In this document: positions 9,176 to 57,178 of the stretch, one piece after another
Numbering within the stretch: position 1 is the first letter of the stretch
Layout of the letters: every line of letters starts with the position of its first letter
From: a virus
Virus record (IMG/VR): IMGVR_UViG_3300046463_000164
Length of the DNA: 64,000 bases
Strand: one strand, 5' to 3'
The notes under the pieces: generated by a model
Told to the model about the DNA's origin: nothing
Seen by the model: only the letters and a program-made list of their open reading frames with translations
The model's database searches: none
Translations under genes and position numbers: made by a program

Positions 9176-9859
9176 ATGTCTAAAGTTGTTAAGTTGTCGG
9201 CAGAAACTCTGCAAGTGTTGAAGATTGCATCTGGTATTAACAAGTCGCTGGCCTTCAAGGCGGGCAACGAGATCAAGACGGTTTCGGCAACCGGTTCGAT
9301 CGTCATGGAAGCAACGATCACTGAAACCTTCCCGGCTGACTTTGCGGTCTATGAACTGCCGAAGCTGCTTGGTGTTCTGGCGCTGCCGTCGTTCAAGGAT
9401 GCTGAGCTGGTGTTTGAAGACGGCGTTGATACGCATATGATCATCAAGGCCGGTTCGTCCAAGATCAAGTATTTCTACACCCCTGAAGACTTCGCCAAGC
9501 ATCCGGGCAAGTCTATCGTTCTGCCGAAGGTTGACGTTGAAGTCAATCTCCAGAAGGATACGCTGGAAGCATTCGAGAAGGCAGCTGCCGCTCTGGGCCA
9601 CAAGTTCATGAAGTTCGCCGTGAAGGACAAGGAATTGTTCCTGGTCGCGACGACTCCTGAACTGGATACGTCCAACGACTATATTGTCGATATGGGTGCT
9701 CAAGATTCGGACGACTTCGAAGCGATGGTGAAGCTCGAAAATCTGAAGCTGGTGCCGGGCGATTTCAACGTCCAACTCCTGAAGATGGGTGGCCGTGGTA
9801 TTAGTAAGTGGTCGCATCTGACCCGTAAAATTAACACGTTCATCGGTCTGGAGCTGTAA
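9176..9859 (+). CDS. 45: Sliding clamp (gp45)
   Basis: KLSAETLQVLKIASGINKS, FAVYELPKLLGVL, LKLVPGDF; AAGGA RBS; precedes gp44. Confidence 0.9.
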   Translation: MSKVVKLSAETLQVLKIASGINKSLAFKAGNEIKTVSATGSIVMEATITETFPADFAVYELPKLLGVLALPSFKDAELVFEDGVDTHMIIKAGSSKIKYFYTPEDFAKHPGKSIVLPKVDVEVNLQKDTLEAFEKAAAALGHKFMKFAVKDKELFLVATTPELDTSNDYIVDMGAQDSDDFEAMVKLENLKLVPGDFNVQLLKMGGRGISKWSHLTRKINTFIGLEL

Positions 9860-13225: not shown

Positions 13226-13493
13226 TAACAACCGGATGATCAGAGTAGGATTTGGGAAGCACGAAGGGGTTTGGTTCTTTCGTGCCGATTTTTGGTTTAA
13301 CGGTTATAGGATAACTCGTGACGACTTTTAAGGTGATGTTCAGGTCGCTATACGCAGGTAGTTTTGGAGTTAGTATCAGCACAGTAATTGAGGAATTTCC
13401 TACCAAAGAAGCAGCCGAGATTGCCATAAAGCAGGTAGACAAGAATCCTCTATCCGTTTACGTGAGCAGTCAAAGCATCCGACTCTATACTGT

Positions 13494-13727
13494 ATGAGCT
13501 ATCTTACGCAGCAACAACGCCGTAGGTTTCTAGTCGATATCACCAGAGCACAATGGGCAGTTGATGTTGGTAAATTGCTTGATGATATCGAAGTGGCTGT
13601 GGCCAACGCTATCCTAACTAAGCAAGCATCTGAGCGCAGATTCGCAGAGGCACCCGGAGAGCCAGAAAGAACTGGCTTGCCTCATTATGATATTGAACCT
13701 GAAGAAAATTGGGGATACGGAAATTGA
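13494..13727 (+). CDS. Hypothetical protein
   Basis: Coupled small ORF. Confidence 0.5.
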   Translation: MSYLTQQQRRRFLVDITRAQWAVDVGKLLDDIEVAVANAILTKQASERRFAEAPGEPERTGLPHYDIEPEENWGYGN

Positions 13728-14248
13728 AAACGTCTAAAGAATGGTGGGATGAAACGAAGTCGGATACAGTTAAGATCAATAACTGGCTCCAAGCTCAATA
13801 CACCGGAGAAATCACAGCAGCAGGACGTATTGTTGATTTCGGCGAAAAGTATGCCGCGACGGACAAGGAGAAGAAGATTCTCAACTTTATCGCGGATCAA
13901 GAGCGGACTCACGCAGATTGGATCAAGACTCTATTGGTGACCCGTGGTATCGAACCGAAGGTAGGAAATGCTAACAAAAGGTATTGGAAAGAAGCGTTGC
14001 CGGGTATCTCCGACTTTGCAACCGGTGCGGCAGTTGCGGCTCATGCGGAGGCAATGCGTCTTGAGCGAATTCGCGCGATTGCGGAGGATGAAGAGTCTCC
14101 AGCTGATATTCGCTTCACGTTCCTGAGAATCTTGGTGGACGAGATTGGTCATGAGCGCATGTTCCGTCGGCTGAGCAACGCTGAAGCTTTGGAAGCGACT
14201 CTTGGTCATCACGAAGCTGGGGCTAAATCTTTGGGTCTAGTTATCTAA
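13724..14248 (+). CDS. Ferritin-like di-iron protein
   Basis: Paired E...ExxH motifs (GEITA/QERTH; AEAMR/DEIGH); probable TTG start at 13724. Confidence 0.75.
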   Translation: MKTSKEWWDETKSDTVKINNWLQAQYTGEITAAGRIVDFGEKYAATDKEKKILNFIADQERTHADWIKTLLVTRGIEPKVGNANKRYWKEALPGISDFATGAAVAAHAEAMRLERIRAIAEDEESPADIRFTFLRILVDEIGHERMFRRLSNAEALEATLGHHEAGAKSLGLVI

Positions 14249-19203: not shown

Positions 19204-19232
19204 TAGACTTAACATAGCCCATCGGCTATAAT
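19204..19232 (+). promoter_or_regulatory. Sigma70-type promoter of the glycosylation operon
   Basis: TAGACT-N17-TATAAT followed by AAGGAG RBS. Confidence 0.75.
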
Positions 19233-19256
19233 AGGAAGGTTAATAAAGGAGAAAGA

Positions 19257-20450
19257 ATGAAGATTGCTGCAATTTATTGGCCCACATCTTCAGTGGGCGG
19301 CATTAACACGTTGTTTGAGTCTCTACGGAAAGCGGCCATTGCCCAGGGTGATGAGTTCGACGTCATCCGTTGCGGTAATCTGAAAACCATCAAACCCGAG
19401 AAGTTTGCTGAACCGAAGTTGATTCGCGGTGGGGATACTTTCATTACGGTTCATGGCGATTCGTCGCATCACCCGGATCAGATCCAAGGCACGATCAAGT
19501 GGCTTGAAGAAAATTATGACGCGGTGTATTTCGGCTACTTGTGTCCGCACGAAAACAAGGCGTATGGCAGCGAGCCGGTATTCATGCCGATGTATACTGA
19601 TCTGAAACTTCCAAAGGTATCGTGTATTGTTGATGCCTATTGGGATTCGTATGCAGATTGGGCAATTCCCTGCTTCCCTCATATTAAGCGGACTGTGGTA
19701 TCGCAAATCGCCTACGCTGAACCGTTGGTGAAGATGGGTATGCCGGTAGAAGCGATCAAGGCTCCCATTACTCCGAAGCTGAATATTCAATCCGTTCGCA
19801 GCGACGAATCTCTGACGGTCTGGACTTCCCAATGGAAGACGATCAAAGGTATTGACAAGCTGCTTCCTCATATTCCGGCAATCTCGGAAGTCTCTAAGGT
19901 GGAGTTGTATTCCAATGGGATTCTGTACTATCAGATTCGGGAAGATGAAGAGTGGAAAGCTGCAGTCGGTAAGGATCACTTTAAGGAGTTCAACGGTTAC
20001 GGAAAGGCTGAGTTCTTTGGGTATGTTTCAACAGATGAAATCCCGGAGATTCTGACCCGTTCTTGGTTTATGATCGACCTTCAAGGTATTGGCAAGCCTA
20101 AGCATGAAGCATACCGGAATGGCGCTTACAACTATACGACCATCGAGGCGTTGCTGTATGGGTCTTGTCCTATCCTGCACGCTCAGGCGCTGAAGTCTAT
20201 TATCCCCAAGGAATTCTTCTTGACGATTGAGCATCCGAAGGAAATTGCAGAACTGATTCGTACCAGCAAGGATTTTGCTCTTGATCCGGTCCGTCAGAAG
20301 AACGCGCGTGAATGGGTATTGGACATTCACTCGGATTCAGCGACGTATAACGTCATCAAGGAGTCGTTCGCGCTCCCTGATCCGGTTGTGGATATCTCTG
20401 GTTTCTTGAAGAAAGATGAGCCAGCTGATCTTTTCTCTATGTTTGGTTGA
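19257..20450 (+). CDS. GT-B fold glycosyltransferase (GT4-like), soluble
   Basis: N-terminal VGGINT; WKTIKGID; FFGYV; C-terminal YTTIEALLYGSCPIL (EA-x-x-x-G-x-x-P); no TM segment. Confidence 0.8.
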   Translation: MKIAAIYWPTSSVGGINTLFESLRKAAIAQGDEFDVIRCGNLKTIKPEKFAEPKLIRGGDTFITVHGDSSHHPDQIQGTIKWLEENYDAVYFGYLCPHENKAYGSEPVFMPMYTDLKLPKVSCIVDAYWDSYADWAIPCFPHIKRTVVSQIAYAEPLVKMGMPVEAIKAPITPKLNIQSVRSDESLTVWTSQWKTIKGIDKLLPHIPAISEVSKVELYSNGILYYQIREDEEWKAAVGKDHFKEFNGYGKAEFFGYVSTDEIPEILTRSWFMIDLQGIGKPKHEAYRNGAYNYTTIEALLYGSCPILHAQALKSIIPKEFFLTIEHPKEIAELIRTSKDFALDPVRQKNAREWVLDIHSDSATYNVIKESFALPDPVVDISGFLKKDEPADLFSMFG

Positions 20451-20461
20451 GGTTGCTAAGT

Positions 20462-21061
20462 ATGAGTGTGAATAAGAAGGTTGTAGTTCTAGTTGAACCC
20501 CACGCGGATGACATCTATCTCAGTTGTCATCAACATGCTGTAGATTGGGTGAAGGAAGGAAAGGTTGTAGTGATCGTCACCGTCTTTTCGGGAACCCGGA
20601 AACGGGCGCGCGACGGCACCAGCTACGCAGATGCAATCGGTGCTACCTGGATCGGCTTAGGGTTTGATGAGTTCGCTGAGCCTGATATCCGCAATGCGTA
20701 TTTGAACACGCCGTTTGATCCCCTGCCGGGTAATCTCAGCCTGATCTATGAGGCTAGTGAGGTTCAGGTAGTTTCCCCGCTAGGTATCCAGAACCCCGAT
20801 CACCAGGCTGTTCGTGAGTGGCTAAAGGCTTCTAATGACCAGTTGCGCTATTATGCGGAGATTCCGTATTATACGAAGCTGAAGAATCAAGAAGAAGTCA
20901 ACGGACTGATTGTTGGCAAGGTGATTGATAGTATCAAGAAGCCTAAGCACACAAAGGCTGACGAGAAGTATTGGAAGTGTTTTAAGGATCAAGCGAAGTT
21001 TTTCCACTTTAACCCGCCGGAATCTTACAAGGATGTCCCGGAACTTTTGGTGACAGATTAA
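20462..21061 (+). CDS. PIG-L/LmbE-family N-deacetylase
   Basis: VEPHADD, VTVFSG, NPDH, YAEIPYY. Confidence 0.85.
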   Translation: MSVNKKVVVLVEPHADDIYLSCHQHAVDWVKEGKVVVIVTVFSGTRKRARDGTSYADAIGATWIGLGFDEFAEPDIRNAYLNTPFDPLPGNLSLIYEASEVQVVSPLGIQNPDHQAVREWLKASNDQLRYYAEIPYYTKLKNQEEVNGLIVGKVIDSIKKPKHTKADEKYWKCFKDQAKFFHFNPPESYKDVPELLVTD

Positions 21062-21714
21062 TGGCTGTAGTCAAGCATATACATATCATCGGAGCAGGCG
21101 GTCATGCCAATGTGGTGTTGGATATTGTTGAAGAGTTGAGGAAATATGTAGGAATCAACATCTATGCCGATTCCTATGATCCCGTAGCCAACAATAGATT
21201 TTGGGACTATCCTATCAAGGGATCGGCCACTGACTTCTTTTCAGAAGTCAAATACAACTGGAATCATGACTATATTGTGGCCATCGGAGACAACTCCGCT
21301 CGCGGTAGGTTGTCGGAGAGTTTCAAGTTGGCGACTAAGCGTAAGCCCGTCACCCTCATCCATCCTAAAGCTATAGTGAGCGATAGGGCCAAGATTGGCC
21401 ACGGCACGGTGATTATGGCAGGAGCAGTTGTTGGTCCTGGGGCTGTCATTGGCGATAATTGTATTATCAATCACGGAGCAACGGTTGATCATGATTGTAT
21501 GCTTGAAGATGCAGTTCATATCTGTCCTGGAGCGCATATTGCTGGTGCAGTCAAGGTCGGAAAGGGCGTTCAGGTCGGCATCGGTGCCAGTGTTATACAA
21601 GGCATAAGTATTGGTGAATATACCACCATCGGTGCCGGAGCAGCAGTTGTAAGTGATATCGCCGGTTGGGTAACAGCGGTCGGAGTCCCGGCCAAGGTAA
21701 TTAAGGAATATTGA
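21061..21714 (+). CDS. Sugar N-acetyltransferase, PglD/NeuD family
   Basis: IIGAGGHANVV, VAIGDN..R, IHPKA, hexapeptide repeats with VDHDC, VGVPAK. Confidence 0.92.
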   Translation: MAVVKHIHIIGAGGHANVVLDIVEELRKYVGINIYADSYDPVANNRFWDYPIKGSATDFFSEVKYNWNHDYIVAIGDNSARGRLSESFKLATKRKPVTLIHPKAIVSDRAKIGHGTVIMAGAVVGPGAVIGDNCIINHGATVDHDCMLEDAVHICPGAHIAGAVKVGKGVQVGIGASVIQGISIGEYTTIGAGAAVVSDIAGWVTAVGVPAKVIKEY

Positions 21715-21715
21715 A

Positions 21716-22900
21716 ATGTTGAATGCAGGTATTAGTCCGTGGCCGTTTTATGCTCAAGATGAACGTGATGCGGTTCAGAACATATTGATTTCAGGCAAGG
21801 TGAATCAGTGGACGGGCACGGAAGTCAAGGAATTTGAGAAAGAGTTCGCAGAGTATATTGGGACATCATATGCAGTAGCGGTATCAAACGGCACGGTGGC
21901 GTTGGATCTGATTCTCCAATATTGTTTGTTGGGTGCCATCGATGCAGAAGTTATTGTGACGTCCCGGACTTTTATTGCATCGGCTAGTTCCATTATCATG
22001 GCGGGAGCAAAGCCGGTATTTGTGGACGTTGATCCGAAGTCTGGCAATATCACTCCTGAAGCAATTCGAGCAGCGGTCACGGAGAATACTGTAGCAATCA
22101 TCTGTGTTCACTTGGCTGGTTGGCCTTGTGATATGGACCCGATCATGGAGATTGCAGCTGATAATGGACTGTATGTAATCGAAGATTGTGCACAGGCTCA
22201 TGGCGCGATCTATAAGGGTCGCAAGGTCGGTTCCATCGGTCACGCGTCTGCTTGGTCTTTCTGTCAAGACAAGATCATGTCGACAGGCGGTGAAGGTGGT
22301 ATGATCACAACCAACACGTCATTCATTTGGACCTATTGTTGGTCCAAGAAGGATCACGGCAAGAGTTATTTTGACGCCGTGATGCGTAAGGATCATGCTC
22401 CTGGTTTCCGTTGGTTGCATAGTAGTATCGGGTCGAATTACCGTATGACCGAAATTCAAGCCTCAATCGGTCGTATTCAGCTACGCAAGCTGGAAAGTTG
22501 GGTCAGCACCCGCAATTATATTGCGGACGAGTTGAATAAGGTGGCTTGGCCGCTTTCTGCTGTTCGTATTGAATGGTGCGACTTCCCCGATAGTCGCCAT
22601 GCTAAGTACAAGCATTATATGTATGTAAATCCTGAAGGTCTCAATGAAGGTTGGGATCGGGAAAGAATAATCAAGGAATTGATTGCCGAAGGAGTTCCCT
22701 GCTACCACGGTTCTTGTTCAGAAGTTTATCTGGAAAATGCGTTTGACGGACATTACAAAACTCTGCCGGTAGCAAAGGAGTTGGGTGAGACTAGCCTGAT
22801 GTTCTTGGTTCATCCGACCATTAACATGATGGAAGTCCACAATATGACTGAAGGACTTCGCAAGGTGCTCACAGCCGCTTCAAAATCTTGTAGAGAATGA
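21716..22900 (+). CDS. DegT/DnrJ/EryC1/StrS PLP sugar aminotransferase (PglE / Neisseria PglC-like)
   Basis: SNGTVAL, VHLAGWPCDM, IEDCAQAHGA, SFCQDKIMSTGGEGGM, GSNYRMTEIQA. Confidence 0.93.
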   Translation: MLNAGISPWPFYAQDERDAVQNILISGKVNQWTGTEVKEFEKEFAEYIGTSYAVAVSNGTVALDLILQYCLLGAIDAEVIVTSRTFIASASSIIMAGAKPVFVDVDPKSGNITPEAIRAAVTENTVAIICVHLAGWPCDMDPIMEIAADNGLYVIEDCAQAHGAIYKGRKVGSIGHASAWSFCQDKIMSTGGEGGMITTNTSFIWTYCWSKKDHGKSYFDAVMRKDHAPGFRWLHSSIGSNYRMTEIQASIGRIQLRKLESWVSTRNYIADELNKVAWPLSAVRIEWCDFPDSRHAKYKHYMYVNPEGLNEGWDRERIIKELIAEGVPCYHGSCSEVYLENAFDGHYKTLPVAKELGETSLMFLVHPTINMMEVHNMTEGLRKVLTAASKSCRE

Positions 22901-24018
22901 CGGATATAAGAATTAAGGACACTCCCAGCAATATTGCTGATATATTGATGGGACGTGATCCCGTTGAACCCGATGCAAAACTAATCCAAGAAAATATCAA
23001 AGACAAAGCAGTGTTGGTGACTGGCGCAGGTGGTTCCATCGGGTCAGAGATTTGTCGTCAAGTCGCCAACCAAGGTCCGAGTGTATTGGTATTGTATGAG
23101 TTGAACGAGTTTGCTCTCTATACAATCCACGTCGAGCTAATGCGAACTCACCCGCACGTTAAGGTCATCCCCGCTTTGGGCTCGATCTTGAATTGTTCGC
23201 GGGTGTCGTATTTCCTCAGCAAGTTTAACATCAATACCATTTATCATGCGGCGGCGTATAAGCATGTTCCAATGGTAGAGTATAATATCACTGAGGGCGT
23301 ATATAACAACTTTATTGGAACTGCTGCCTTGGTTACAACAGCAGACGGCAATGTAGATACTTTTGTGCTTGTGTCTACTGATAAGGCGGTTAGACCGACT
23401 AATGTGATGGGGGCAACTAAGCGTTTGTCTGAGATGTATGTTCAGGCCGTGCAGGAACGTCGTCATCGGACTAAGACAACGTTCTCAATGGTTAGGTTCG
23501 GGAATGTTCTTGGGTCCTCAGGATCAGTGATTCCGTTGTTTCTAGAGCAGATTGCAAGGGGAGAACCTTTGACGGTCACCCATCCTGATATCACACGCTA
23601 CTTCATGTCGATTCCTGAGGCTGCTCAGTTGGTTATTCAGGCAGGAGCAATGGCAACTGGCGGTGAAGTATTCGTCCTGGATATGGGTGAGTCTGTGAAG
23701 ATTGTAGATATGGCCAAGCGTTTGCTTCAACACTACAATCTACCTGAAAATCATTATGAGATCACTGGGTTGCGTCCCGGCGAGAAGCTGTATGAAGAGT
23801 TGTTGATTGGTGATTCGGTCGGAAACACATACCATCCTAGGATTATGAAAGCGAATGAATTTCATCCTTCATATTCCCGTATGCTCGACATTTACGATAT
23901 AATAGAAGAATGCTACCATAGTATGGATTTCAAGAGACTGTTTAACGTGCTAGAGCACAATGTTTCTGGATTCAATCATTCCGGCGAGATAAAGGATCAT
24001 TTGTATGAGCATAATTAA
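22897..24018 (+). CDS. UDP-GlcNAc 4,6-dehydratase, PglF/CapD/WbpM catalytic domain only
   Basis: TGAGGSIG, HAAAYKHVP, STDKAVRPTNVMGATK, VRFGNVLGSSGSV, GLRPGEKLYEEL; no N-terminal membrane domain. Confidence 0.93.
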   Translation: MTDIRIKDTPSNIADILMGRDPVEPDAKLIQENIKDKAVLVTGAGGSIGSEICRQVANQGPSVLVLYELNEFALYTIHVELMRTHPHVKVIPALGSILNCSRVSYFLSKFNINTIYHAAAYKHVPMVEYNITEGVYNNFIGTAALVTTADGNVDTFVLVSTDKAVRPTNVMGATKRLSEMYVQAVQERRHRTKTTFSMVRFGNVLGSSGSVIPLFLEQIARGEPLTVTHPDITRYFMSIPEAAQLVIQAGAMATGGEVFVLDMGESVKIVDMAKRLLQHYNLPENHYEITGLRPGEKLYEELLIGDSVGNTYHPRIMKANEFHPSYSRMLDIYDIIEECYHSMDFKRLFNVLEHNVSGFNHSGEIKDHLYEHN

Positions 24019-24469
24019 GGCGGTAGACCGCGCCTACAAAACGATGAAAGAGCGTAATTGGAACACCATCTATTGGGCGGTGGACCTACACGGCGTGTGT
24101 CTGAAGTCGAATTATCAGCAAGGTGGATACAGTTGGATCAATATCCACGCGCGTCGAGTATTGAAGCTCATCAGCCGACTTCCTGAAACTAAGATCATCT
24201 TGTGGTCGTCGGTGTATGATTTGGAGAAGGGAGATATCATCGACTTCTTTGAAGAACATGGTATTCATGTTTCAGACTTCAACAGCAATCTGAGCGAGGG
24301 CAATACTCACGTTTCTGATTTCTCGCAGAAGTTTTATTTCAGCGTCCTGTTGGACGACAAAGCGGGTTTCGATCCTGAAACCGATTGGTTGGCAATTGAA
24401 AACTATCTTTATGATAAAGGAATATTAAATGCAAACGAAGGAAAAGCCGGTAGTACATTACATTGGTGA
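24005..24469 (+). CDS. HAD-like phosphatase (phage type)
   Basis: YWAVDLHG, IILWSS, LLDDKAGF. Confidence 0.6.
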   Translation: MSIIKAVDRAYKTMKERNWNTIYWAVDLHGVCLKSNYQQGGYSWINIHARRVLKLISRLPETKIILWSSVYDLEKGDIIDFFEEHGIHVSDFNSNLSEGNTHVSDFSQKFYFSVLLDDKAGFDPETDWLAIENYLYDKGILNANEGKAGSTLHW

Positions 24470-24645: not shown

Positions 24646-24891
24646 ATGGAACTGAAAGAACAAATTCGAGCATTGGGAATTCGCCGGGCGGCGCTTTCAG
24701 CCGAGGTTGAGGCGGTGGAAGAAAAGCTCAGCGTCATTGCAGCTGAAGCCAAAGCTATCAGCAAGGAAGCGCAACAGAAGCGCGAGAAACTCAATCATCT
24801 AGACTTCGCAATCAATAACTTGCGTACTGTGATTGAGTTGGAAGAACCCATCGCTGAAATTGTTGTGGTCGATCCTTGGGGTGAATCTTAA
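24646..24891 (+). CDS. Small coiled-coil protein
   Basis: Heptad-rich ORF. Confidence 0.55.
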   Translation: MELKEQIRALGIRRAALSAEVEAVEEKLSVIAAEAKAISKEAQQKREKLNHLDFAINNLRTVIELEEPIAEIVVVDPWGES

Positions 24892-25258
24892 TCTCCTGAG
24901 GTTCCACCGAAAAGCTAAAGTAATATATGACCGCGAGAATCTTAAAGACAATAGGCAGAGTGTGGTGGCCTTTGTTTTGGATTCTCGCGGTCGCATTCTT
25001 ACTGAAGGTTGGAACTCGTACACCAAAACCCATCCCATACAGAAAAAGGCTGCCGACGAAGCTCAAGACCCGCATAAGTGTTTCTTGCATGCCGAAATCC
25101 ACGCCCTTTCTCGTCTCAGCTATAAACAGCTATCAAAACAAGACACCATTGTCGTTCTGAGATTGGACGGTAAATATCGTCTCATGCCTAGCAAGCCTTG
25201 TCCTATCTGTCAAGACGTGATATGCCAGTACGGAATCAAGAATATTATCCACAGTTAG
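24881..25258 (+). CDS. Cytidine/dCMP deaminase-fold protein (start uncertain)
   Basis: GWN, LHAEIHAL, SKPCPIC zinc motif. Confidence 0.8.
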   Translation: MNLNLLRFHRKAKVIYDRENLKDNRQSVVAFVLDSRGRILTEGWNSYTKTHPIQKKAADEAQDPHKCFLHAEIHALSRLSYKQLSKQDTIVVLRLDGKYRLMPSKPCPICQDVICQYGIKNIIHS

Positions 25259-25539: not shown

Positions 25540-25572
25540 AAAAAGCCTCTGGAGAAATCCAGAGGCTTTTTC
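25540..25572 (+). terminator. Rho-independent terminator
   Basis: AGCCTCTGGA-GAAA-TCCAGAGGCT followed by a T run. Confidence 0.85.
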
Positions 25573-40857: not shown

Positions 40858-41394
40858 TCATTTTTCACCTAAGAGTGCCCTTGCTTTAATATAAGCTTGG
40901 AAGGTTAATCCATCATAACAATCGCATTTGACGTGGTAGTCTCCATACGGAGCAATATCAGAATCATCATCCAGGATAATAAACATCTTGGTGATGAGAT
41001 CGTTTCGCTTGAGCCAATCCTTGATCTCAGCCCCACGACGATTGTCCGGATCAGAGTAATTGCGTAAACTCTGAGCCGTTCTCCATTCTGTATCTGACCT
41101 TAGAACATAAGAACCAAGATTTGGACAGGCCGCATTTAGGATCGATGCAAACGATAGATAGTTGATATCACCCAAACGCCAGGTTGAAGAGATAACCAAC
41201 TTACAATCGAAGTCTTCACAGAGTCGCCGTAGCAGCAAACAAGCGATTGGATCTAGATACGACCAGCATCCAAAATTACCCGAAGCGATGCAGGCGCGTG
41301 GGGTACATAATACCCCGTCCATGTCCAGGAAGATGATATTGCTTGCAGTTTGATATTGGGCAAGATTAATTGCCTCTACTAATTCTTCTCGCAA
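40858..41394 (-). CDS. HAD-domain protein (Swiss-army-knife RNA repair-like HAD)
   Basis: IFLDMDGVL, VISSTWR, RGAEIKDWL, IILDDDSD. Confidence 0.8.
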   Translation of the reverse strand: MREELVEAINLAQYQTASNIIFLDMDGVLCTPRACIASGNFGCWSYLDPIACLLLRRLCEDFDCKLVISSTWRLGDINYLSFASILNAACPNLGSYVLRSDTEWRTAQSLRNYSDPDNRRGAEIKDWLKRNDLITKMFIILDDDSDIAPYGDYHVKCDCYDGLTFQAYIKARALLGEK

Positions 41395-42105: not shown

Positions 42106-42300
42106 TTAGCGGCTCAGCACGTGCTGGCAATACATCCATGAATGATCTTGGCGACACTCGTGCCAGATGTCGATGTCGTAGCTGATGCTGAGGTAGACTA
42201 TGGTGAATGTTGCTAGCAACACCAAACCCACAGCCAGCCACCCAATAAGTTTGTCCATCAACGAACGCTTACGTTTAACTTGTCTCATCATTTGCTCCAC
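42106..42300 (-). CDS. Small membrane protein
   Basis: One TM segment; overlaps the telA end. Confidence 0.5.
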   Translation of the reverse strand: MEQMMRQVKRKRSLMDKLIGWLAVGLVLLATFTIVYLSISYDIDIWHECRQDHSWMYCQHVLSR

Positions 42301-43427
42301 GAAAGCATTTCGGTTTTCATTTCATTCCGCAGAACATCGATTCGATTCGAAGCCTCAATACGTTCTTGATGGCCCTTCTCTTGGATGTCCTTCACGGCAT
42401 GGACGCTGTCGATCAGAGTCTTTTGCATGAACTCCAGGGTATCCATATCCACAACCGAGCGTTCGGATGCTTGGGCCACAGCGATTGCATTCTGGCCGTT
42501 CAGCTCAGCCGCCTTACGGAAGAATTCGTTTGTCTTGTCGTCCACTTGTGTGCTCAGTTCCGCATTTTCCTTCTGCTTGATCTTCAGAATTGTCATAGAC
42601 AATTGCTTTTTCCAAGCAGGGATAGTTGTATTAACCAGATCGCTGAACTTCTGATACAGCGCCGTATTACCGGATTGAATCTGGCGAATTTCTGGTGCAG
42701 TCAGGAGAGCAATCTGTTGAAGCCGCTTCAGACGGTCAACTTGCTTATCCCACAGCTTAATCCGCTGTTCAAGCTCATTGACTTCCTGGATGAAGAACTG
42801 ATCGGTTGACTTCTCAGCTTCAACCTTCTTGATCGCGTGTTCTTGACCGAGAACTTGAATCTCAGCTTCGATTTCAGCGATTGCTTTCTCAAGCCCGCGA
42901 TATTCTTCCAGATTGGCGTCATACAGCTTATCCAGAAACTCATTATCCTGCTCCATCGTCTTGCTGCGACTGGTTAGATCAGTGGCAACTTTGTCGATGG
43001 AGGTGCTGGTGTTCTCGAATTGAGCCAGAACTTCAACCCTTTTCTTCTTGAAGAAAGAAGTCACCCCGCCAAACCAACCGCCCTTCTTGTCTACATTCAG
43101 ATCAGCAACGTTGACCTGTGACGTCAGGGAAAGAATCTGGGTGATGCCATCCCCAAAGTCGCCCATCTTGCCGGTCGTAGTTTTCTTCACAACGACATCG
43201 GCCAGTTCAGCAATCTTCTTACCGTGCTCAGTGCCATACTCGCTGATCTTCATCGAACTCTTGATGCCATTCGACTTCACGAGAGCCGTCTGACGAACCT
43301 GAACCAACTGCTGATTGGTCGGAATGTCTTGCACAAACTGAACGTTATGCGGGTTGGTTCCTGTAACCGTTCCGGTCATAACAGGCTTGGTCTTAGGCAC
43401 ATCTTCAAACAAATTACCGTAACTCAT
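42288..43427 (-). CDS. TelA-family toxic anion resistance protein
   Basis: LDKLYDANLEEY, QQIALLTAPEIRQIQSGN, TTIPAWKKQL, VVDMDTL. Confidence 0.85.
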   Translation of the reverse strand: MSYGNLFEDVPKTKPVMTGTVTGTNPHNVQFVQDIPTNQQLVQVRQTALVKSNGIKSSMKISEYGTEHGKKIAELADVVVKKTTTGKMGDFGDGITQILSLTSQVNVADLNVDKKGGWFGGVTSFFKKKRVEVLAQFENTSTSIDKVATDLTSRSKTMEQDNEFLDKLYDANLEEYRGLEKAIAEIEAEIQVLGQEHAIKKVEAEKSTDQFFIQEVNELEQRIKLWDKQVDRLKRLQQIALLTAPEIRQIQSGNTALYQKFSDLVNTTIPAWKKQLSMTILKIKQKENAELSTQVDDKTNEFFRKAAELNGQNAIAVAQASERSVVDMDTLEFMQKTLIDSVHAVKDIQEKGHQERIEASNRIDVLRNEMKTEMLSWSK

Positions 43428-43436
43428 ATGTTTCCT

Positions 43437-43667
43437 TTAACCGCCTATAGGCACAAGCTTCAGTTGTTGCTTGGGCGGGAGATTGTCAATATACTGGTGA
43501 TCCTTCAACCAGGTCTGAATGAGGATAATCGACTTCGCGTCATCCGCATAGAACAAATCAGGCCACGTAACCTTGGGGATATAATAGACGATGAAGCGTT
43601 GCCCCATCCTCAAATGATCTCCCTTGTTCCGGTTATGCTCCTGCATGAAAAAGTTGAAGCTCTTCAC
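43437..43667 (-). CDS. Hypothetical protein
   Basis: LRMGQRF...WPDLFY pattern; coupled ORF. Confidence 0.5.
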   Translation of the reverse strand: MKSFNFFMQEHNRNKGDHLRMGQRFIVYYIPKVTWPDLFYADDAKSIILIQTWLKDHQYIDNLPPKQQLKLVPIGG

Positions 43668-44461
43668 AAAATTCCTTTCAGTGCCGTAGAAATATCTTGC
43701 AATCCATCCTTTCCGCTGATAACCGCCGATCTGATAACATTCTCAATAATCGGGATGACGGTCGATTCTAGTTCTTCAATGAACGTCTGGTTCTGCTTAC
43801 AGACTTTCTCCATATCATCCAATTGTCCCGCATTCAACTTCATCAGAGCGTAGGACTTCACAAACATCTGCTGACGTCTGATGACCAAATCCTTCAGGAC
43901 TGGATCTTTACAACGATCCGTTAGATAATTCAGAGCAAAGATCGTATCGTTCAGATTGTTATCAATCCGCTCCATAATCCTCTTAGCTTCTCTCAACCCT
44001 TCGATGAAAGGGTTGAGTTGGTATTGCTCCTTAATGCGAAACATTTCCAGCGCTTTGGTCAATCTAATCTTGACCTCATCCCGGATTTCCGCTGGGCTGG
44101 AATGACGCTTAGGACGACGCAGGAAGCCGATAAACCCTTTAGCCTTACTATCTCCCTCGATCAGCGCTAGAGCCTCTAGGATCAGCATTTTAGGCGGTTC
44201 TAGCGCATCCTTTAGTGCTGCGAAGTCGGTGACTACCTGATCAACGCACTTATTCGCTTCAGTTGCTTCAGCAATATTGAAATCACCAATGACCCCAACA
44301 TCGCTAGGCTTCAGATTGATCGGCTGAATCGAATTGAGAATGTAGTTGATTCGCTTCGCAGTCGTCTTAGTCGAAACGGCATTCAACCAATCCTTGATAT
44401 CTGCTAGAGGATCAATAGGCGCAGATTCAGCGCCAAACATTCCACTATAACGGCTCATCAA
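43664..44461 (-). CDS. Helical protein, possibly a divergent TelA-like partner
   Basis: All-helical; KGFIGFL and C-terminal TVIP echo TelA; lies in the same cluster. Confidence 0.5.
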   Translation of the reverse strand: MMSRYSGMFGAESAPIDPLADIKDWLNAVSTKTTAKRINYILNSIQPINLKPSDVGVIGDFNIAEATEANKCVDQVVTDFAALKDALEPPKMLILEALALIEGDSKAKGFIGFLRRPKRHSSPAEIRDEVKIRLTKALEMFRIKEQYQLNPFIEGLREAKRIMERIDNNLNDTIFALNYLTDRCKDPVLKDLVIRRQQMFVKSYALMKLNAGQLDDMEKVCKQNQTFIEELESTVIPIIENVIRSAVISGKDGLQDISTALKGIL

Positions 44462-44655
44462 TACCTCTTAACGTGAACCATATGACCGCAGGGCGGGCAG
44501 GTGATGAAATATTCGGTCTCGCTGCAGCCATCATAGTCCTTGTAGCGATGCTCTTGAATATCCTTCGGAATATATTCCAACGTCACGCCACAGTTACGAC
44601 AAACAACTTCCTTCACAACACTCGGATGCGGAGTTGTGGAAATAACCTTAACCAT
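44458..44655 (-). CDS. Zn-ribbon protein
   Basis: CRNC...CPPC. Confidence 0.6.
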   Translation of the reverse strand: MVKVISTTPHPSVVKEVVCRNCGVTLEYIPKDIQEHRYKDYDGCSETEYFITCPPCGHMVHVKRY

Positions 44656-44902
44656 TTGCTTCCTGCTCCTTCTTGACTTCAGCCTGAGCCATATGATACA
44701 AGGTCGTCAGCTTACGCAGCGGTTTCTCTCCGCTGATCATCATACCCGGCACACCAATTTGCTTCAGAGTTTCAACTACTTGTTCAGCAAGGGTCATATC
44801 TACCACGTCTCCATAAAACGTAAATGCTTCGTTGCGAGTACCGCCTTGGCTTACATTCTTCATAGATTCAGCCATAGCCTTGAAATACGGTAAAGCGGAC
44901 AT
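44648..44902 (-). CDS. Hypothetical protein
   Basis: GGAG RBS with a TATAAT upstream. Confidence 0.5.
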   Translation of the reverse strand: MSALPYFKAMAESMKNVSQGGTRNEAFTFYGDVVDMTLAEQVVETLKQIGVPGMMISGEKPLRKLTTLYHMAQAEVKKEQEANG

Positions 44903-44995
44903 ATTTTCTCCAGGGTAACTAAGGAAATTATACTATGGCGATGGATAAAAGAAAAGAGGCGACATAATGTCGCCTCTGATCCTAACTATGAAACT

Positions 44996-46039
44996 TTAAC
45001 GTACCGCATCACACCAATACAGCACTGAGCTACCTTGGAACAGCTTACGGTTAGTCGAAGTCGATTGGATGAAGATAGTGAACTTGCTGTGGTCACCAGG
45101 AACCAAGCGGACATCACCCGATTGCGGCAGACCCAAGAGATCACGAGCCGCTGCCCCGCCATACACAACCGCAGACTTCTTGTCCTTGATCACAATCTTC
45201 TTGTAATCTTGAACCCGGCGTTCAGTCTTGGTCAGCTCATAGAAAGCCGCACCCTTGACGTAAGGCTTGCCAGTGCGGGATTCAACAAACGGCATAATCT
45301 CCGTACCATCATCAGCAGCCAGAACCTTGTAGATATTCACTTGGTCCGAAATATCAGTCAGCGCCGCTTTCACGTCCTTGGTCTTAACATCAGACAAGTC
45401 TGTGTAGAACGTCGAAGTAGACTTGACGCCAGCTGAACGAGCCGCATAGAAGCCCTTCATTGCCTGAGTCGTAGCTGCGGTTGCAACTTCCACGCCCTTA
45501 GCCGTCTGATCCCATTCCAAGATATTGCCGCCAGGGATACCCAGCGCTTCCAGACGACGCTTGGAACCGCGCGGAACGCGGAACACGAACGTCCAACGAT
45601 CAGTAGCTTGCAGTCGAACAATCTCGCGTCCGATGGTCGAACCCGAATAACGTTTGGACGAATTGTCATCACCATCGGTAATGACCATCACGAGGAAAGA
45701 AACCGTCTCAAGATGAGCATCCGGCTGACGCTTAAATTGCTCGATCAGATCACCAACCGAGTCAAAAAGAGGCGTCGAGCTACCATCCGCCTTATAGGCT
45801 TGCGGATCAAGCGTCTTCAGAGCCGTGACGCTGGCGAGCGTTGTTTCGAACACGTTACTTGCCGGGCGACCAGTCCCACACTTAACTACGCTGACGATCG
45901 TGTCCTGACTGTAAGCAATTGCTTCTTCCTTAATGGTCGAGATATTGCTGTTATAGTCCTTAGCAGCCGCCGAAGCAATACCGCCCATCGAAGCCGAGTG
46001 ATCACGGCTGATACCAATGTAATTCTTAATCTGCGACAT
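44996..46039 (-). CDS. vWA-domain protein
   Basis: MIDAS DHSASM, STPLFDS, VITDGDDN. Confidence 0.85.
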   Translation of the reverse strand: MSQIKNYIGISRDHSASMGGIASAAAKDYNSNISTIKEEAIAYSQDTIVSVVKCGTGRPASNVFETTLASVTALKTLDPQAYKADGSSTPLFDSVGDLIEQFKRQPDAHLETVSFLVMVITDGDDNSSKRYSGSTIGREIVRLQATDRWTFVFRVPRGSKRRLEALGIPGGNILEWDQTAKGVEVATAATTQAMKGFYAARSAGVKSTSTFYTDLSDVKTKDVKAALTDISDQVNIYKVLAADDGTEIMPFVESRTGKPYVKGAAFYELTKTERRVQDYKKIVIKDKKSAVVYGGAAARDLLGLPQSGDVRLVPGDHSKFTIFIQSTSTNRKLFQGSSVLYWCDAVR

Positions 46040-46042
46040 TTC

Positions 46043-46219
46043 TTATTCCTTGTTAAAAATTCGATATAACCAACCAGATCCACTGTAGCCGTCATTGAAA
46101 TAACGACGCTCGACGGCTTCCAACCAAATCCATTGATGATCTAGGGTTTTGATTGGAAACCAAGCATACCATCTATTCCAGTGTTCTCTGATAATTGGAG
46201 GTTTTCCCTGCCATTGCAT
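46043..46219 (-). CDS. Small Trp-rich hypothetical protein (below the ORF-track cutoff)
   Basis: Translated by hand: MQWQGK...WNRWYAWFPI...WIWLEAVERR; coupled to the terD stop. Confidence 0.5.
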   Translation of the reverse strand: MQWQGKPPIIREHWNRWYAWFPIKTLDHQWIWLEAVERRYFNDGYSGSGWLYRIFNKE

Positions 46220-46827: not shown

Positions 46828-46842
46828 TTCTACAATTCCTTG

Positions 46843-47067
46843 TTACAAAAGTTTGTTGATACGATTAAACAACTTGTTAGCATACTTCGTTTCGCCGTCA
46901 CGAACGCCTTCATCATAAGCATTCATTACGCCATCTTGGAGATTTTCGTAAGGCGTGGGTTCATGATCTGGCCACGCGTCACTAATTACGTCCCTCAATA
47001 GACCCGTCAGTTCAACCGACAGGCCTAAAGAGCAGAGTTGAGCTTCTACTTCAGGCCGAATCCTCAC
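46843..47067 (-). CDS. Hypothetical protein
   Basis: Coupled ORF between the terC-like gene and terD. Confidence 0.45.
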   Translation of the reverse strand: MRIRPEVEAQLCSLGLSVELTGLLRDVISDAWPDHEPTPYENLQDGVMNAYDEGVRDGETKYANKLFNRINKLL

Positions 47068-48092: not shown

Positions 48093-48198
48093 TAGGTACA
48101 ACTCCTACATAAAAGGATGATGAATATAAAGAGGGCAACAACCGTACCGAGGTCCATTGCCACCGCAAACAGAGAGTCCACAAATGGGACTTCGGGAT

Positions 48199-54942: not shown

Positions 54943-55548
54943 TTACTTTAGTTGTTCCAATAGCTTGAGCTCAGCTTCTCTAGACTTATCATAAGTCCCT
55001 TGAAGTTGACCTCCTTCTACCCGCTTTGCATTCAGCTTATTCTTCATCCCATAAGCAACGAACAAATCTCCGGAATTCAAACCGCCAATCAACCAGCCGC
55101 CGGATTCAATAACATCCAATAGCATACTAATCGCCACTCGACAGTTGAAATTTACTCCCTTCAAGAAGTTAGCAACCGAATCCGAGAAATTGTCATGCGG
55201 GTCTCCCTGATAAACCTTCACAGAGGCTTCAGGTGGAATCCGTCGATTAATCTCTTGAATAATTTCCTCAGGAGAATATTGATGCAGGATCAACAAAAGT
55301 CCGAAGTGGATAGCATCGATCAGCTCAAAGATTGCCTTGTCTCTATCAATCGTCTTGGCTTGAGCCTTACCGGACCACCACTTCCAGGTAGGTTCCAGTT
55401 CACGAGCAAACTCAGATACCTCGTCCAGAAAGGCAATCTTTGCCTTCCCGCGAGATACTTGATCCCGCCAATCCTTTCCATTATATTTCTCGTTCAGTAA
55501 CTCCTGAGCAAGAAACATATAAATCAACTCTTTACTGTTTACGAGCAT
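54943..55548 (-). CDS. Dimeric all-alpha dUTPase/dNTPase (gp56-like fold)
   Basis: DEVSEF, WKWW, ELIDAIHF, KNKLN..R. Confidence 0.82.
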   Translation of the reverse strand: MLVNSKELIYMFLAQELLNEKYNGKDWRDQVSRGKAKIAFLDEVSEFARELEPTWKWWSGKAQAKTIDRDKAIFELIDAIHFGLLLILHQYSPEEIIQEINRRIPPEASVKVYQGDPHDNFSDSVANFLKGVNFNCRVAISMLLDVIESGGWLIGGLNSGDLFVAYGMKNKLNAKRVEGGQLQGTYDKSREAELKLLEQLK

Positions 55549-56092
55549 AATTGTCCTTAAACGCATTGAAGAACTCGTCAAACTCCGATGTTCCATTCAT
55601 CGAGTTAAGGAAATAGGCGTCATAGTCTTGAAACTGACGAACATATTCCTCAAAGTCGCTAGGCGGCAGATGACTACGATCTTCAAGCTCAATCTTGATT
55701 ACGGGAATTCTCGCGGCTTTCAAAAAGTCCCATTCATTCGGGGTTCTGAAATCGGTGATGATATACAGATTGTCTTTACGGAAACATTGATCCAAAATAT
55801 GATCATGGGTTTCAATGAACTGATTGACAAAGAAGTTTGGATCCACATCGCGAACCTTTCCTGCTACCAACCAAATATCCCTAGGCGTCAGGTTATTCGG
55901 ATTGTTTGGATGCGTGAAAGGCTGGTCTTTATTCTCAGGGCTGACATATACCGGCAACCAAGGAAAAAGCTGATTCGCAAGGACACGGACCTGATCGCTG
56001 AATGACAATCTAACCGCACCTTGCGTTTTGGCGAGATATTCTGCAAAGTAGTCTTTGCCAGACTTATACTCGCCCATAAACGCAAAAATCAT
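55532..56092 (-). CDS. Deoxynucleoside monophosphate kinase (gp1-like)
   Basis: GEYKSGKD P-loop, SFSD, TPRD, ITDFRTPNE. Confidence 0.85.
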   Translation of the reverse strand: MIFAFMGEYKSGKDYFAEYLAKTQGAVRLSFSDQVRVLANQLFPWLPVYVSPENKDQPFTHPNNPNNLTPRDIWLVAGKVRDVDPNFFVNQFIETHDHILDQCFRKDNLYIITDFRTPNEWDFLKAARIPVIKIELEDRSHLPPSDFEEYVRQFQDYDAYFLNSMNGTSEFDEFFNAFKDNYARKQ

Positions 56093-57178
56093 TTACACCT
56101 CTACGTCAAACTTACGGAAACTCGACTCATAGATCGAACGGGAAAGCTCAGCAGACAGTCCGGTGAGGTCTATCGCCGTAGTTAGTACGGTTCCCCGCTT
56201 AGAAGCGATGTAGTGAGCTACTAGCTGTGCGTACAGCCACAAAAGATTACCTTCCAGAGGCACGTTGAAGTTAATAAACAGATGACCCAGGTTATGGATC
56301 ATTGTGCCTAGAACAAAGTCAGGTTCATCAGTTGTAATGCCTTCCGTCAGCATCGCTACAATAGCACTGAAGAAACTCTTCCAATGAAGAATATCAGGAC
56401 CGATGATCGGCATATGATTTTCTTCAGTTGATGTCAGATAATTGCTTTTGTTCGCAATCGCCGCATCAGCCTGCTCCCTGGAAAAGTCGTACAGGTGAGC
56501 ATTGGTGACGTGCCAACGATACGGACCAAGTTTCAAACCTGGGTAGTTCTTCTTGATCTCGTTGAACATCAACTCATGCAGGAATGAGAATTCGAACGGA
56601 TTGATAGAACCGGTACCAAAGATGATATCGCCTGAGCGCTGGATGACCTTGGTGCAGAACTTATCTTCGCCTTCAACATAGAAGTTGATACCCAGGTTGC
56701 AAGGTCGATCCTTACCTAGTTCCCCATAACCAAAACGGTCTTCAATCGCTTCAGTCGAATCCTTATGGATATCGTGAATCGATACAAACGCGCGGCGAGT
56801 GTAGAGACTATCACGGCGGAATAGATCAGGCATAGATACAATCTGACGTTGGTCATAGAAACGCGGACCATAAGCGCCAGACCAAGTCACACCGTCATCT
56901 GAATACTGGGGCGCGCGTGGCAGGAAGAAGGACAGATAAGGGTTCACACGATCATCGCCCGCCATAACCCAAAAGGTTTCAGCGATCAAAGCGAAGATAT
57001 TAGATTTGCGACCTGCGAGAGAAAGGTGACGCGAGCGGGGATTTGTTACTTCAAAGGTTGTATCGAAAATTGAAGTGCAACCGCCGTTACGGGATGGCCG
57101 ATAATGGCCTTCATGGATGATTTTGTTGAAACCTGCGAGTACTACACTTGAAACGCTACTACCAGAAACCAAATGCAT
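56093..57178 (-). CDS. Thymidylate synthase homolog: dUMP hydroxymethyltransferase
   Basis: YSDDG.TW.GAYGPR, TRRA, catalytic PCN, QRSGD..FG...IN (Asn = dUMP specificity), HLY; resembles the SPO1/PhiW-14/ViI-type enzyme rather than ThyA. Confidence 0.82.
   Translation of the reverse strand: MHLVSGSSVSSVVLAGFNKIIHEGHYRPSRNGGCTSIFDTTFEVTNPRSRHLSLAGRKSNIFALIAETFWVMAGDDRVNPYLSFFLPRAPQYSDDGVTWSGAYGPRFYDQRQIVSMPDLFRRDSLYTRRAFVSIHDIHKDSTEAIEDRFGYGELGKDRPCNLGINFYVEGEDKFCTKVIQRSGDIIFGTGSINPFEFSFLHELMFNEIKKNYPGLKLGPYRWHVTNAHLYDFSREQADAAIANKSNYLTSTEENHMPIIGPDILHWKSFFSAIVAMLTEGITTDEPDFVLGTMIHNLGHLFINFNVPLEGNLLWLYAQLVAHYIASKRGTVLTTAIDLTGLSAELSRSIYESSFRKFDVEV

Follow-up and report, generated by a model that had tools for sequence, protein, structure and literature searches.

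The DNA analysed here, hereafter the window, is a stretch of 64,000 nucleotides from an uncultured T4-like phage that is known solely from metagenomes (IMG/VR record IMGVR_UViG_3300046463_000164). It contains an operon in which a soluble glycosyltransferase (GT) and a deacetylase are encoded together with a bacillosamine-type sugar nucleotide pathway. An earlier reading of the sequence, referred to below as the original prediction, had assigned to this operon the transfer of an amino sugar to 5-hydroxymethyluracil (hmU) in DNA. The operon contains the following features:

19204..19232, plus strand: promoter-like site TAGACT-N17-TATAAT, predicted by a consensus scan (10/12 matches)
19257..20450, plus strand: soluble GT-B glycosyltransferase, AGT-like, 397 residues, predicted DNA (hmU) amino-sugar transferase
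20424..20447, plus strand: end of the GT C-terminal tail, ...ADLFSMFG, putative sliding-clamp-binding motif from a tail comparison
20462..21061, plus strand: predicted LmbE/PIG-L-family de-N-acetylase, 199 residues, with an alternative TTG start at 20447
21061..21714, plus strand: PglD/PglB-ATD-type 4-amino-sugar N-acetyltransferase, 217 residues (TIGR03570)
21716..22900, plus strand: UDP-4-keto-6-deoxy-GlcNAc aminotransferase-like protein, 394 residues (DegT_DnrJ_EryC1)
22897..24018, plus strand: PglF-type UDP-GlcNAc 4,6-dehydratase, catalytic domain alone, 373 residues (Polysacc_synt_2)
24005..24469, plus strand: HAD-like protein, 154 residues, its gene overlapping the dehydratase gene by 14 bases
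24833..25258, plus strand: cytidine/dCMP-deaminase-family gene (PF00383, 42.2 bits against a cut-off of 25), start codon uncertain
25540..25571, no strand: symmetric GC-rich hairpin with a 14-pair stem and runs of A and T on either side, found in a terminator scan

The five plus-strand open reading frames (ORFs) from the GT to the dehydratase were found where the original prediction had placed them, overlapping or one base apart (junctions of -4, -1, +1 and -4), and the promoter it had put ahead of them corresponds to the promoter-like site at 19204-19232. Three copies of the TAGACT/TATAAT hexamer pair lie in the window, where 0.02 would be expected, and one of them is directly upstream of the hydroxymethylase operon described below (57218-57246, minus strand). 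The operon had been thought to end at 24018; instead the unit continues through the HAD-like and deaminase-family genes to the hairpin at 25540-25571, the first strong one, which is likely a bidirectional terminator closing the unit. Two small ORFs lie between the HAD-like and deaminase-family genes and one more precedes the hairpin. The HAD-like protein gave weak matches to the BT0820 HAD phosphatase model (30 bits, cut-off 165) and PHROG 1238 (E 6e-6), and in T4-like relatives, with and without Pgl genes alike, a homologue of it comes after the cassette. The deaminase-family gene, which has a homologue of the same Pfam family in one relative (L009), would by its sequence supply dUMP for the synthesis of hmdUMP. 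None of six operon proteins contains a segment resembling a membrane span, the highest 19-residue Kyte-Doolittle mean being 1.65. As the original prediction had stated, no phosphoglycosyltransferase, flippase or oligosaccharyltransferase was seen among the window ORFs scanned or annotated, some small ORFs being unscanned. The operon sits between tail-tube-like genes and rIIA/rIIB, away from the hydroxymethylase.

The sugar that the cassette would produce can be predicted from the closest solved relatives of its enzymes. The dehydratase matched Polysacc_synt_2 at 378 bits and, in the PDB, the catalytic domain of C. jejuni PglF (WlaL, 5BJU) at 287 bits, followed by CapD (165 bits), CapE/FnlA (138) and the inverting enzyme PseB (132); on this similarity it is a predicted PglF-type (retaining) UDP-GlcNAc 4,6-dehydratase, and its highest 19-residue hydropathy mean is 1.28. 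The aminotransferase (DegT_DnrJ_EryC1, 298 bits) has Pcryo_0638 (7L7X) as its best PDB match over its full length, at 478 bits and E 2e-142, the runner-up scoring 177 bits. Pcryo_0638 has been demonstrated to convert UDP-4-keto-6-deoxy-GlcNAc to UDP-2-acetamido-4-amino-2,4,6-trideoxy-D-glucose (PMC8040287). The acetyltransferase was recognised by the NeuD/PglB/VioB model TIGR03570 at 202 bits (cut-off 160.8), together with PglD_N and Hexapep, and its best PDB matches were PglB-ATD of Neisseria (4M98, a pilin glycosylation protein) at 130 bits, PerB at 115 bits, and then VioB and PglD, the latter at 72 bits; it may use another acyl donor. Together the three sequences point to UDP-N,N'-diacetylbacillosamine (UDP-diNAcBac), and the proposal of PglD-, PglE- and PglF-like enzymes is upheld in that their best solved relatives are characterised enzymes of the UDP-diNAcBac type (130, 478 and 287 bits, respectively). 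Synthesis of pseudaminic or legionaminic acid was considered and rejected, the dehydratase being far nearer to PglF than to PseB and the operon containing no synthase or CMP-transferase gene; no nonulosonic-acid synthase was seen in the window.

The phage thus shares with the Campylobacter and Neisseria pgl systems a PglF, PglE and PglD-type trio leading to UDP-diNAcBac, and pgl proteins are the nearest solved relatives of its dehydratase and acetyltransferase. It differs in that the aminotransferase is nearest to an O-antigen enzyme, Pcryo_0638, with the same substrate as PglE, and in that the dehydratase has no membrane domain. In addition, PglC, PglA/J/H/I, PglK and PglB were not seen among the scanned or annotated window genes, and the phage sugar would not be put on undecaprenyl phosphate; the operon is not part of a pgl protein-glycosylation system. 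In one short contig, whose GT is identical, the acetyltransferase gene was called as a shorter product of 197 residues without a recorded Pfam match (L006:5196-5789), which may be a variant or an assembly difference.

The GT gave no match to Pfam, NCBIfam or PHROG, and a profile of 46 homologues found no chain among the PDB sequences at E<=1. An AlphaFold2 model built with the alignment of the 46 homologues (pLDDT 93, pTM 0.88) replaced a single-sequence model with a pLDDT of 37, which was discarded, and shows a GT-B fold with two Rossmann-like domains. In the structural comparison with DNA glycosyltransferases called for by the original prediction, the T4 DNA alpha-glucosyltransferase AGT came top (1Y8Z; VIA-align Z 26.8, root-mean-square deviation 4.1 over 344 residues), and Foldseek gave a TM-score of 0.65 to 1Y6F. 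AGT was followed by HepE and TarM and then by the GlcNAc transferases BshA and MshA, PimA and PglA at Z 24-25; BshA aligned over 317 residues. Among viral proteins, the look-alikes of the model are proteins named DNA alpha-glucosyltransferase and also the GTs of phage SP-15. Five residues of the GT are invariant, G14, G15, K194, K197 and E297. From its likeness to AGT, with indirect support from the gene context and the C-terminal tail described below, the enzyme is predicted to act on duplex DNA, with a UDP-sugar as donor and a 5-hydroxymethylpyrimidine as acceptor. Judged from its sequence it would not belong to the AGT sequence family.

BshA and MshA are partnered by LmbE deacetylases, and the second gene of the operon probably encodes a protein of this kind. 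A profile of five phage PIG-L sequences matched, in two stretches, the LmbE-family GlcNAc-pseudoaglycone deacetylases Dbv21 at E 7e-8 and Orf2* at E 2.6e-6, and PF02585 is carried by 21% of the members of the deacetylase's Atlas look-alike cluster. The metal-site motifs of the family, (A/P)H(P/A)DD and HxDH, are known from MshB. In the phage protein the first reads EPHADD (residues 12-17), with H14, D16 and D17 invariant, and the second GIQNPDH, in which the last histidine, H114, is invariant. Pairs of a GT and an LmbE enzyme occur in the synthesis of mycothiol, bacillithiol, glycosylphosphatidylinositol (GPI), teicoplanin and aminoglycosides, where transfer precedes deacetylation; no characterised LmbE partner of a GT4-type transferase is known to do other than cleave the 2-N-acetyl group from a sugar already transferred. 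The phage pair resembles MshA/MshB, BshA/BshB, PIG-A/PIG-L, tGtfA/Orf2* and the aminoglycoside pairs in combining a GT4-like GT-B enzyme with a subsequent LmbE de-N-acetylase that unmasks the 2-amino group after transfer, and BshA and MshA are strong structural matches of the GT, Orf2* and Dbv21 the nearest solved relatives of the deacetylase. It differs from them in its proposed acceptor, a DNA base, and in its deacetylase, which is shorter (~190-200 residues) and falls in mostly viral clusters.

A free hydroxymethyl acceptor could be provided by a second operon, and the dUMP-type hydroxymethylase operon that had been claimed at 54943-57178 is real. Its genes are:

56093..57178, minus strand: dUMP hydroxymethylase, a thymidylate synthase (TS) homologue of 361 residues in the T4 gene-42 slot, 42% identical to PhiW-14 gp230
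55532..56092, minus strand: gp1-like dNMP kinase, 186 residues, weak DNMK match
54943..55596, minus strand: dimeric dUTPase-family protein, a possible dUTPase/dTTPase (PF08761, 54 bits)

The TS homologue keeps C146, D143, D169 and N177 (E. coli numbering), as do PhiW-14 gp230 and M6 gp58 and unlike T4 gp42. In T4 the region following uvsX holds beta-gt and gene 42; here the TS homologue is found in this region, three small genes away from the uvsX-like gene. Taken with the neighbouring genes at 51100-56092 (minus strand), the order of gp41-like helicase, UvsX and TS homologue is that of T4. Retention of Asp169 and Asn177 led us to reject both a 5-hydroxycytosine synthase, which has a D169N signature (PMC13326640), and a dCMP hydroxymethylase. 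In a T4-like relative that is 100% complete we found HMUDK_hel, a single TS homologue (77% identical) and nothing gp42-like. Judged by these sequences, the T4-like lineage with a dUMP hydroxymethylase in the gene-42 region appears to have switched from 5-hydroxymethylcytosine (hmC) to hmU. The 186-residue kinase has a P-loop, GEYKSGKD, that we take to resemble the one in T4 gp1; a role as 5-HMUDK was rejected on the grounds that the protein shows no resemblance to M6 gp54 and that its P-loop is gp1-like. A dTTPase/dUTPase, the activity possible for the third protein, is a component of the dapT pathway (PMC13458397).

Further hmU genes lie outside the window. Metagenomic contigs of 145-174 kb carry the window genes letter for letter, and walking upstream with exact-protein matches led to an HMUDK_hel protein (PF18723) of 357 residues ~9.5 kb upstream of window base 1 on such records (L030:1-863); HMUDK_hel and a dCMP deaminase (L030:2583-3080) occupy the region ~7-10 kb upstream on the same record. 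Inside the window itself, tblastn with HMUDK_hel proteins as queries gave no hit. In two relatives PF18723 scored 216 bits (G001) and 209 bits (G002), and neither HMUDK_hel nor M6 gp55 has a solved relative by sequence. The P-loop 5-HMUDK of the M6 gp54 type (PF18748) had no match in the window, G001, G002, G003 or G006, a search by which divergent kinases could be missed, and was present only in G004/L017. ADDT (PF18724) was unmatched in five GT-bearing viral records, one of them 100% complete, with a model that recognises M6 gp51 at 160 bits; such an empty result is no proof of absence.

The GT has 112 metagenomic homologues, and the gene neighbourhoods of its family in other phage types connect it with thymidine hypermodification. 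Of 18 phage contexts, 16 conserve the GT and PIG-L pair, 11 have a TS homologue in the locus and at least 11 have HMUDK_hel. On at least 11 non-T4-like contigs the pair is found within a few kb of HMUDK_hel and a TS with the dUMP-hydroxymethylase signature, frequently accompanied by PolA and an HD or NT5C nucleotidase. The co-occurrence with dUMP hydroxymethylase that the original prediction would lead one to expect was thus observed, as the signature is borne by all 11 of the GT-linked TS homologues (11/11) and by that of the window. In M6-like phages the pair lies between a Dda-like helicase gene and the genes for HMUDK_hel (gp55 family), TS, HD-hydrolase and PolA, and in M6 itself the same position is occupied by gp51-53, which are ADDT, a pyridoxal phosphate (PLP) enzyme and a radical-SAM enzyme. 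Across the 18 contexts the GT family of non-T4-like phages was found within nucleotide-metabolism and replication modules, never structural modules.

In T4-like relatives, whose GTs are 63-64% identical to that of the window, the same slot holds the GT, the deacetylase, a second GT4 enzyme and the HAD-like gene. The Pgl cassette recurs in a phage from another sample (GT 79% identical), with the three Pgl-like genes replacing the second GT. Because the T4-like relatives keep the GT and deacetylase while the second GT4 replaces the Pgl genes, the cassette can be regarded as one swappable sugar module of a wider system.

Other variants of the cluster were observed. In the related Pgl-carrying phage a gene of 292 residues stands between the GT and the deacetylase on the opposite strand (L034:7866-8744, minus strand), and may be a mobile element. 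Three non-T4-like loci have a GT neighbour of 270-285 residues with a weak match to the TET-associated glycosyltransferase model, 26.9 bits against a cut-off of 27.5 (L015:11107-11964, L019:9156-9974 and L014:7379-8191); from this match the protein may be a second DNA glycosyltransferase. Elsewhere we found a SAM methyltransferase, which is also fused to the GT in the 589-residue protein P0088, a HMUD1-type P-loop kinase and a weakly sulfotransferase-like protein (L017:11613-12218 and 13404-14027; P0088; L023:2402-3022), which suggest further tailoring of the DNA-bound sugar. A DNA modification system that diversifies its glycans would be expected to vary in this way in its gene content.

A further link to DNA came from the C-terminus of the GT. 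The GTs of T4-like phages carry an unstructured extension of ~30 residues that ends in D(L/M)F(S/A/N)(M/L)F, and this tail was present in 20/21 T4-like GTs and 0/34 members from other phage types. Residues 371-391 of the window GT have no regular structure in the model (pLDDT 61-71). The tail resembles the C-terminus of the T4 gp43 polymerase, SLDFLFG, which we take to be its gp45 clamp-binding element, and similar ends occur in only four of the 95 window genes, including the GT and the phage's own DNA polymerase. The proposed docking partner of the GT tail is also encoded in the window:

9176..9859, plus strand: gp45-like sliding clamp, from a gp45-slide_C match on the gene and its homologues

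A complex prediction for this clamp with GT residues 352-397 returned a score of 0.00, which speaks neither for nor against binding. The PIG-L, TS homologue and kinase of T4-like phages have no clamp-like tail. Clamp-like tails suggest how a modification made after replication could be coupled to the replication fork.

Similar ends were noted on several other proteins. In the window the remaining two belong to a NUMOD3-containing ORF (59753-60595, plus strand; DLFELFE), probably a homing endonuclease, and to a YAcAr ORF beside the DNA ligase gene (60575-60967, minus strand; NLFEQFK). In T4-like phages the HMUDK_hel proteins finish with a lysine-rich linker and then VNLFEGF or VNLFDI (L030:1-863, L024:1423-2490 and L025), and the second GT4 of the T4-like relatives ends in SLFDLL, TLFDNWS or SLFNDWS (L009:10028-11254, L012:11786-13033 and L013:11755-13026).

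Taking these observations together, we consider it probable, with some reserve, that the phage makes hmU DNA, adds a bacillosamine-type amino sugar to it and then removes one acetyl group, leaving a positive charge. Before replication, a dCMP deaminase, the dUMP hydroxymethylase, the gp1-like dNMP kinase and the dUTPase-family enzyme, whose genes are observed, would put 5-hydroxymethyldeoxyuridine (5-hmdU) in place of T. The PglF-, PglE- and PglD-like enzymes, under the same type of early promoter, would by their best matches convert host UDP-GlcNAc to UDP-2,4-diacetamido-2,4,6-trideoxyglucose (UDP-diNAcBac). The AGT-like GT-B enzyme, which probably uses its C-terminal DLFSMFG tail to dock on the gp45-type sliding clamp, would load this sugar onto the 5-hydroxymethyl group of hmU in duplex DNA, and the LmbE/PIG-L enzyme, if it behaves like its family, would then take the 2-N-acetyl group off the DNA-bound sugar. 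The expected product is 2-amino-4-acetamido-2,4,6-trideoxyhexosyl-oxymethyl-dU, a bulky major-groove adduct with one free amine. Calculated nucleoside masses are 486.196 Da ([M+H]+ 487.204) for diNAcBac-hmdU, 444.186 Da (445.193) once a single acetyl group is lost, and 461.165 and 419.154 Da for GlcNAc-hmdU and GlcN-hmdU. By comparison with putrescinyl-T and 5-NeOmdU, its likely benefit would be protection from host nucleases and partial neutralisation of charge; an anti-restriction or anti-CRISPR role for the modified base is suggested by analogy only.

DNA and hmU as the target are supported by four largely independent lines of evidence, the TS homologue, the gene context, the other hmU genes and the tail of the GT. 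The claim that the GT acts on hmU DNA is in this sense sustained by inference, with AGT as the top structural match and a family tied to thymidine-hypermodification genes in unrelated phages. A literature search also agreed with the statement that no bacillosaminyl-hmdU has been described: it found no amino-sugar or bacillosamine adduct of hmU and no bacillosamine or deacetylase associated with phage hmU modification, and returned glycosylated hmC, glycosylated 5-hydroxycytosine, amine-modified thymidines and the SP-15-type oligosaccharide thymidines.

The proposed system works like the glucosylation of hmC in T-even phages moved to uracil, joined to the mycothiol and bacillithiol logic of adding GlcNAc and then deacetylating it, and supplied by a bacillosamine pathway taken over from the making of bacterial glycans. 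With the T-even system (gp42, gp1 and AGT) it shares a T4-like backbone in which TS-homologue, dNMP kinase and nucleotide pyrophosphatase genes lie past the uvsX-like gene, a soluble GT-B enzyme whose best structural match is AGT, and the logic of making a hydroxymethylpyrimidine before replication and glycosylating it on the DNA. In contrast to the T-even phages, the base would be uracil and not cytosine, by the Asn177 signature; no similarity to AGT could be detected in the sequence of the GT; and the phage is proposed to make its own donor sugar, which is de-N-acetylated afterwards. The window GT also has a clamp-like tail and T4 beta-GT has none, the AGT C-terminus being outside this comparison. 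The Pgl cassette and the clamp-like tails are what the window adds to the theme of glycosylated hydroxymethylpyrimidine DNA.

The phages M6, ViI, PhiW-14, SP10, PaMx11 and SH-Ab 15599, which use 5-HMUDK and ADDT (formerly aGPT-Pplase2), have in common with this phage the genes for dUMP hydroxymethylase, dCMP deaminase, a dUTPase-family protein and HMUDK_hel. The position of the cluster and its flanking genes in M6-like relatives, and a proposed end product with a primary amine in the major groove, are also shared. They differ in that ADDT is unmatched in the five GT-bearing records and the P-loop 5-HMUDK was not found in T4-like genomes, and the source of the amine in our phage would be the amino sugar handled by the GT and deacetylase, where those phages draw on an amino acid or polyamine. 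The window system would not belong with the ADDT-type thymidine pathways. Kinetoplastid base J, which is beta-D-glucosyl-hydroxymethyluracil made by JBP1/2 and JGT, has the same proposed core, a hexose O-linked to 5-hydroxymethyluracil. Its hmU, however, arises from T oxidised within DNA and its sugar is plain glucose, whereas the phage would make hmdUTP before replication and use an N-acetylated diamino-trideoxyhexose, and the enzymes are unrelated so far as tested. The thymidines of SP-15, YerA41 and Carin-5 are phage thymidines with sugars that include N-acetylhexosamine (HexNAc), and the Carin-5 sugar block holds GTs and a deacetylase; unlike our phage, these have a pentyl-type linker and phosphate, belong to phages with a PolA-UDG polymerase and use other enzymes.

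Several observations weigh against the proposed mechanism. The identity of the GT to AGT is 11-12% in the structural alignments and generic GT4 enzymes score within ~2 Z of AGT, so the fold alone cannot name the acceptor. The PIG-L gene by itself reaches 25.9 bits with PF02585, under the Pfam cut-off of 28.2, and the HPDH motif, which starts with His in other versions, has Asn as its first residue in the T4-like ones. An acetyltransferase and a deacetylase in one operon are compatible solely if they act at different positions, N4 and N2. A prophage context (L002) and a partial, half-complete T4-like record (L022/G005) have no TS or HMUDK_hel in the available DNA. UDP-diNAcBac is named as donor from operon membership, because the GT is 63-64% identical to those of Pgl-less relatives, which presumably use UDP-GlcNAc. 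Nor does simple O-glycosylation account for the constant presence of HMUDK_hel, whose family is linked with group transfer and the phosphorylation of 5-hmdU; because the genome and all its well-sampled relatives carry HMUDK_hel (PF18723), there is room for a phosphate-dependent step.

These points raise the question of whether the DNA receives a different chemistry. The sugar could be phosphate-linked, after phosphorylation of hmU by a kinase acting together with HMUDK_hel, as in SP-15; the GT could use UDP-GlcNAc, with the Pgl product serving another enzyme; or the amine of the sugar could displace the phosphate of 5-PmdU. Almost all of the well-sampled genomes with the GT and PIG-L pair also have HMUDK_hel, a P-loop HMUD1-type kinase occurs in at least one of the clusters (L017), and the near relatives of the GT in Pgl-less phages fit the use of another donor. 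The thymidines of SP-15, YerA41 and Carin-5 bear phosphate together with sugars including HexNAc, and the Carin-5 sugar block has a deacetylase (PMC12686479). We nevertheless regard such chemistry as unlikely, though worth keeping in view: neither the window nor the complete T4-like relative has a match to the P-loop 5-HMUDK, the operon contains no second GT for a different donor, AGT as the nearest solved analogue of the GT glycosylates the free hydroxymethyl directly, and M6 gp55, of the HMUDK_hel family, is dispensable for group transfer in vitro (PMC8989533).

A different possibility is that the pathway has nothing to do with DNA and that the bacillosamine-type sugar decorates a virion protein, the host envelope or another phage protein, for receptor masking or capsid decoration. 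In bacteria PglF, PglE and PglD serve the synthesis of protein and surface glycans, some phages glycosylate their virion proteins, the operon adjoins tail-tube-like genes and rIIA/rIIB and not the hydroxymethylase, and the prophage context has the GT and PIG-L pair without visible hmU genes. It is difficult to reconcile such a target with soluble-looking operon proteins and the lack of any lipid-carrier enzyme, flippase or oligosaccharyltransferase among those seen, with a GT family that in non-T4-like phages keeps to nucleotide and replication modules, with a clamp-like tail common to the GT and the DNA polymerase, or with a promoter variant common to the sugar and hydroxymethylase operons, and we consider it improbable. 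More improbable still is that the GT and deacetylase make a soluble amino-sugar conjugate, in the manner of BshA/BshB or MshA/MshB, which an HMUDK_hel-family protein joins to activated hmU or which is used as a thiol or redox cofactor. BshA and MshA are near structural matches at Z 24-25, and the pairing of a GT with an LmbE enzyme is familiar from bacillithiol and mycothiol synthesis. The PF18723 proteins, formerly grouped with the aGPT-Pplases, are listed as paralogues of group-transfer enzymes (PMC5889632, Table 3). The later genes of such a route, for a ligase and a cysteine-adding enzyme, were unseen, AGT aligns over more of the GT than BshA does, and the clamp-like tail argues that the GT too, beyond HMUDK_hel, works on DNA.

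If direct glycosylation of hmU by the GT and its partners is correct, an amino sugar on a thymine replacement would be a new branch of phage DNA chemistry, bacillosamine derivatives being otherwise known from the glycoproteins and O-antigens of bacteria. T4-like phages would be able to shift their glycosylation strategy from cytosine to uracil. Sugar cassettes would be exchanged as modules, Pgl genes in some phages and a second GT in others. A cationic, bulky base of this kind would help to explain how phages evade restriction, CRISPR and GmrSD-type defences and would serve as an enzymatic DNA-labelling tool. More tentatively, and with rather less confidence than we attach to the mechanism in this phage, the family may represent a large uncharacterised class of thymidine hypermodification that uses an AGT-like GT and an LmbE enzyme and not an amine:DNA transferase, in which T4-like members have mono-N-acetyl-bacillosamine DNA and tether the GT, second GT and HMUDK_hel to the clamp; this would be the first T4-like phage in which glycosylated hmU replaces hmC, and the first DNA-glycosylation machinery tethered to a clamp. 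With more than 100 members in metagenomes and none from a cultured phage, the GT family is missed by current knowledge. Searches of 50,697 deposited phage genomes by megablast and tblastn with the operon, the GT and PIG-L gave no match.

The remainder of the window is that of a T4-type phage. It encodes a gp43-type DNA polymerase, topoisomerase II subunits, the gp45/44/62 clamp and loader, RegA, rIIA/rIIB, UvsX, a gp41-like helicase, baseplate and tail-tube proteins and a DNA ligase. The closest cultured relative of the polymerase, from Ralstonia phage RSP15, is only 40% identical. Source samples of this lineage are JGI 3300047321 and SRR26076593. We also noted, by Pfam annotation, Ter-type genes (vWA-TerF-like, TerC and TerD) in the early region at ~42288-49000 on both strands, a HAD_SAK_2 domain, the HAD domain of 'Swiss Army Knife' RNA repair proteins, at 40858-41394 (minus strand, 65 bits), and a rubrerythrin-family protein among the early genes at 13709-14248 (plus strand, 31 bits).

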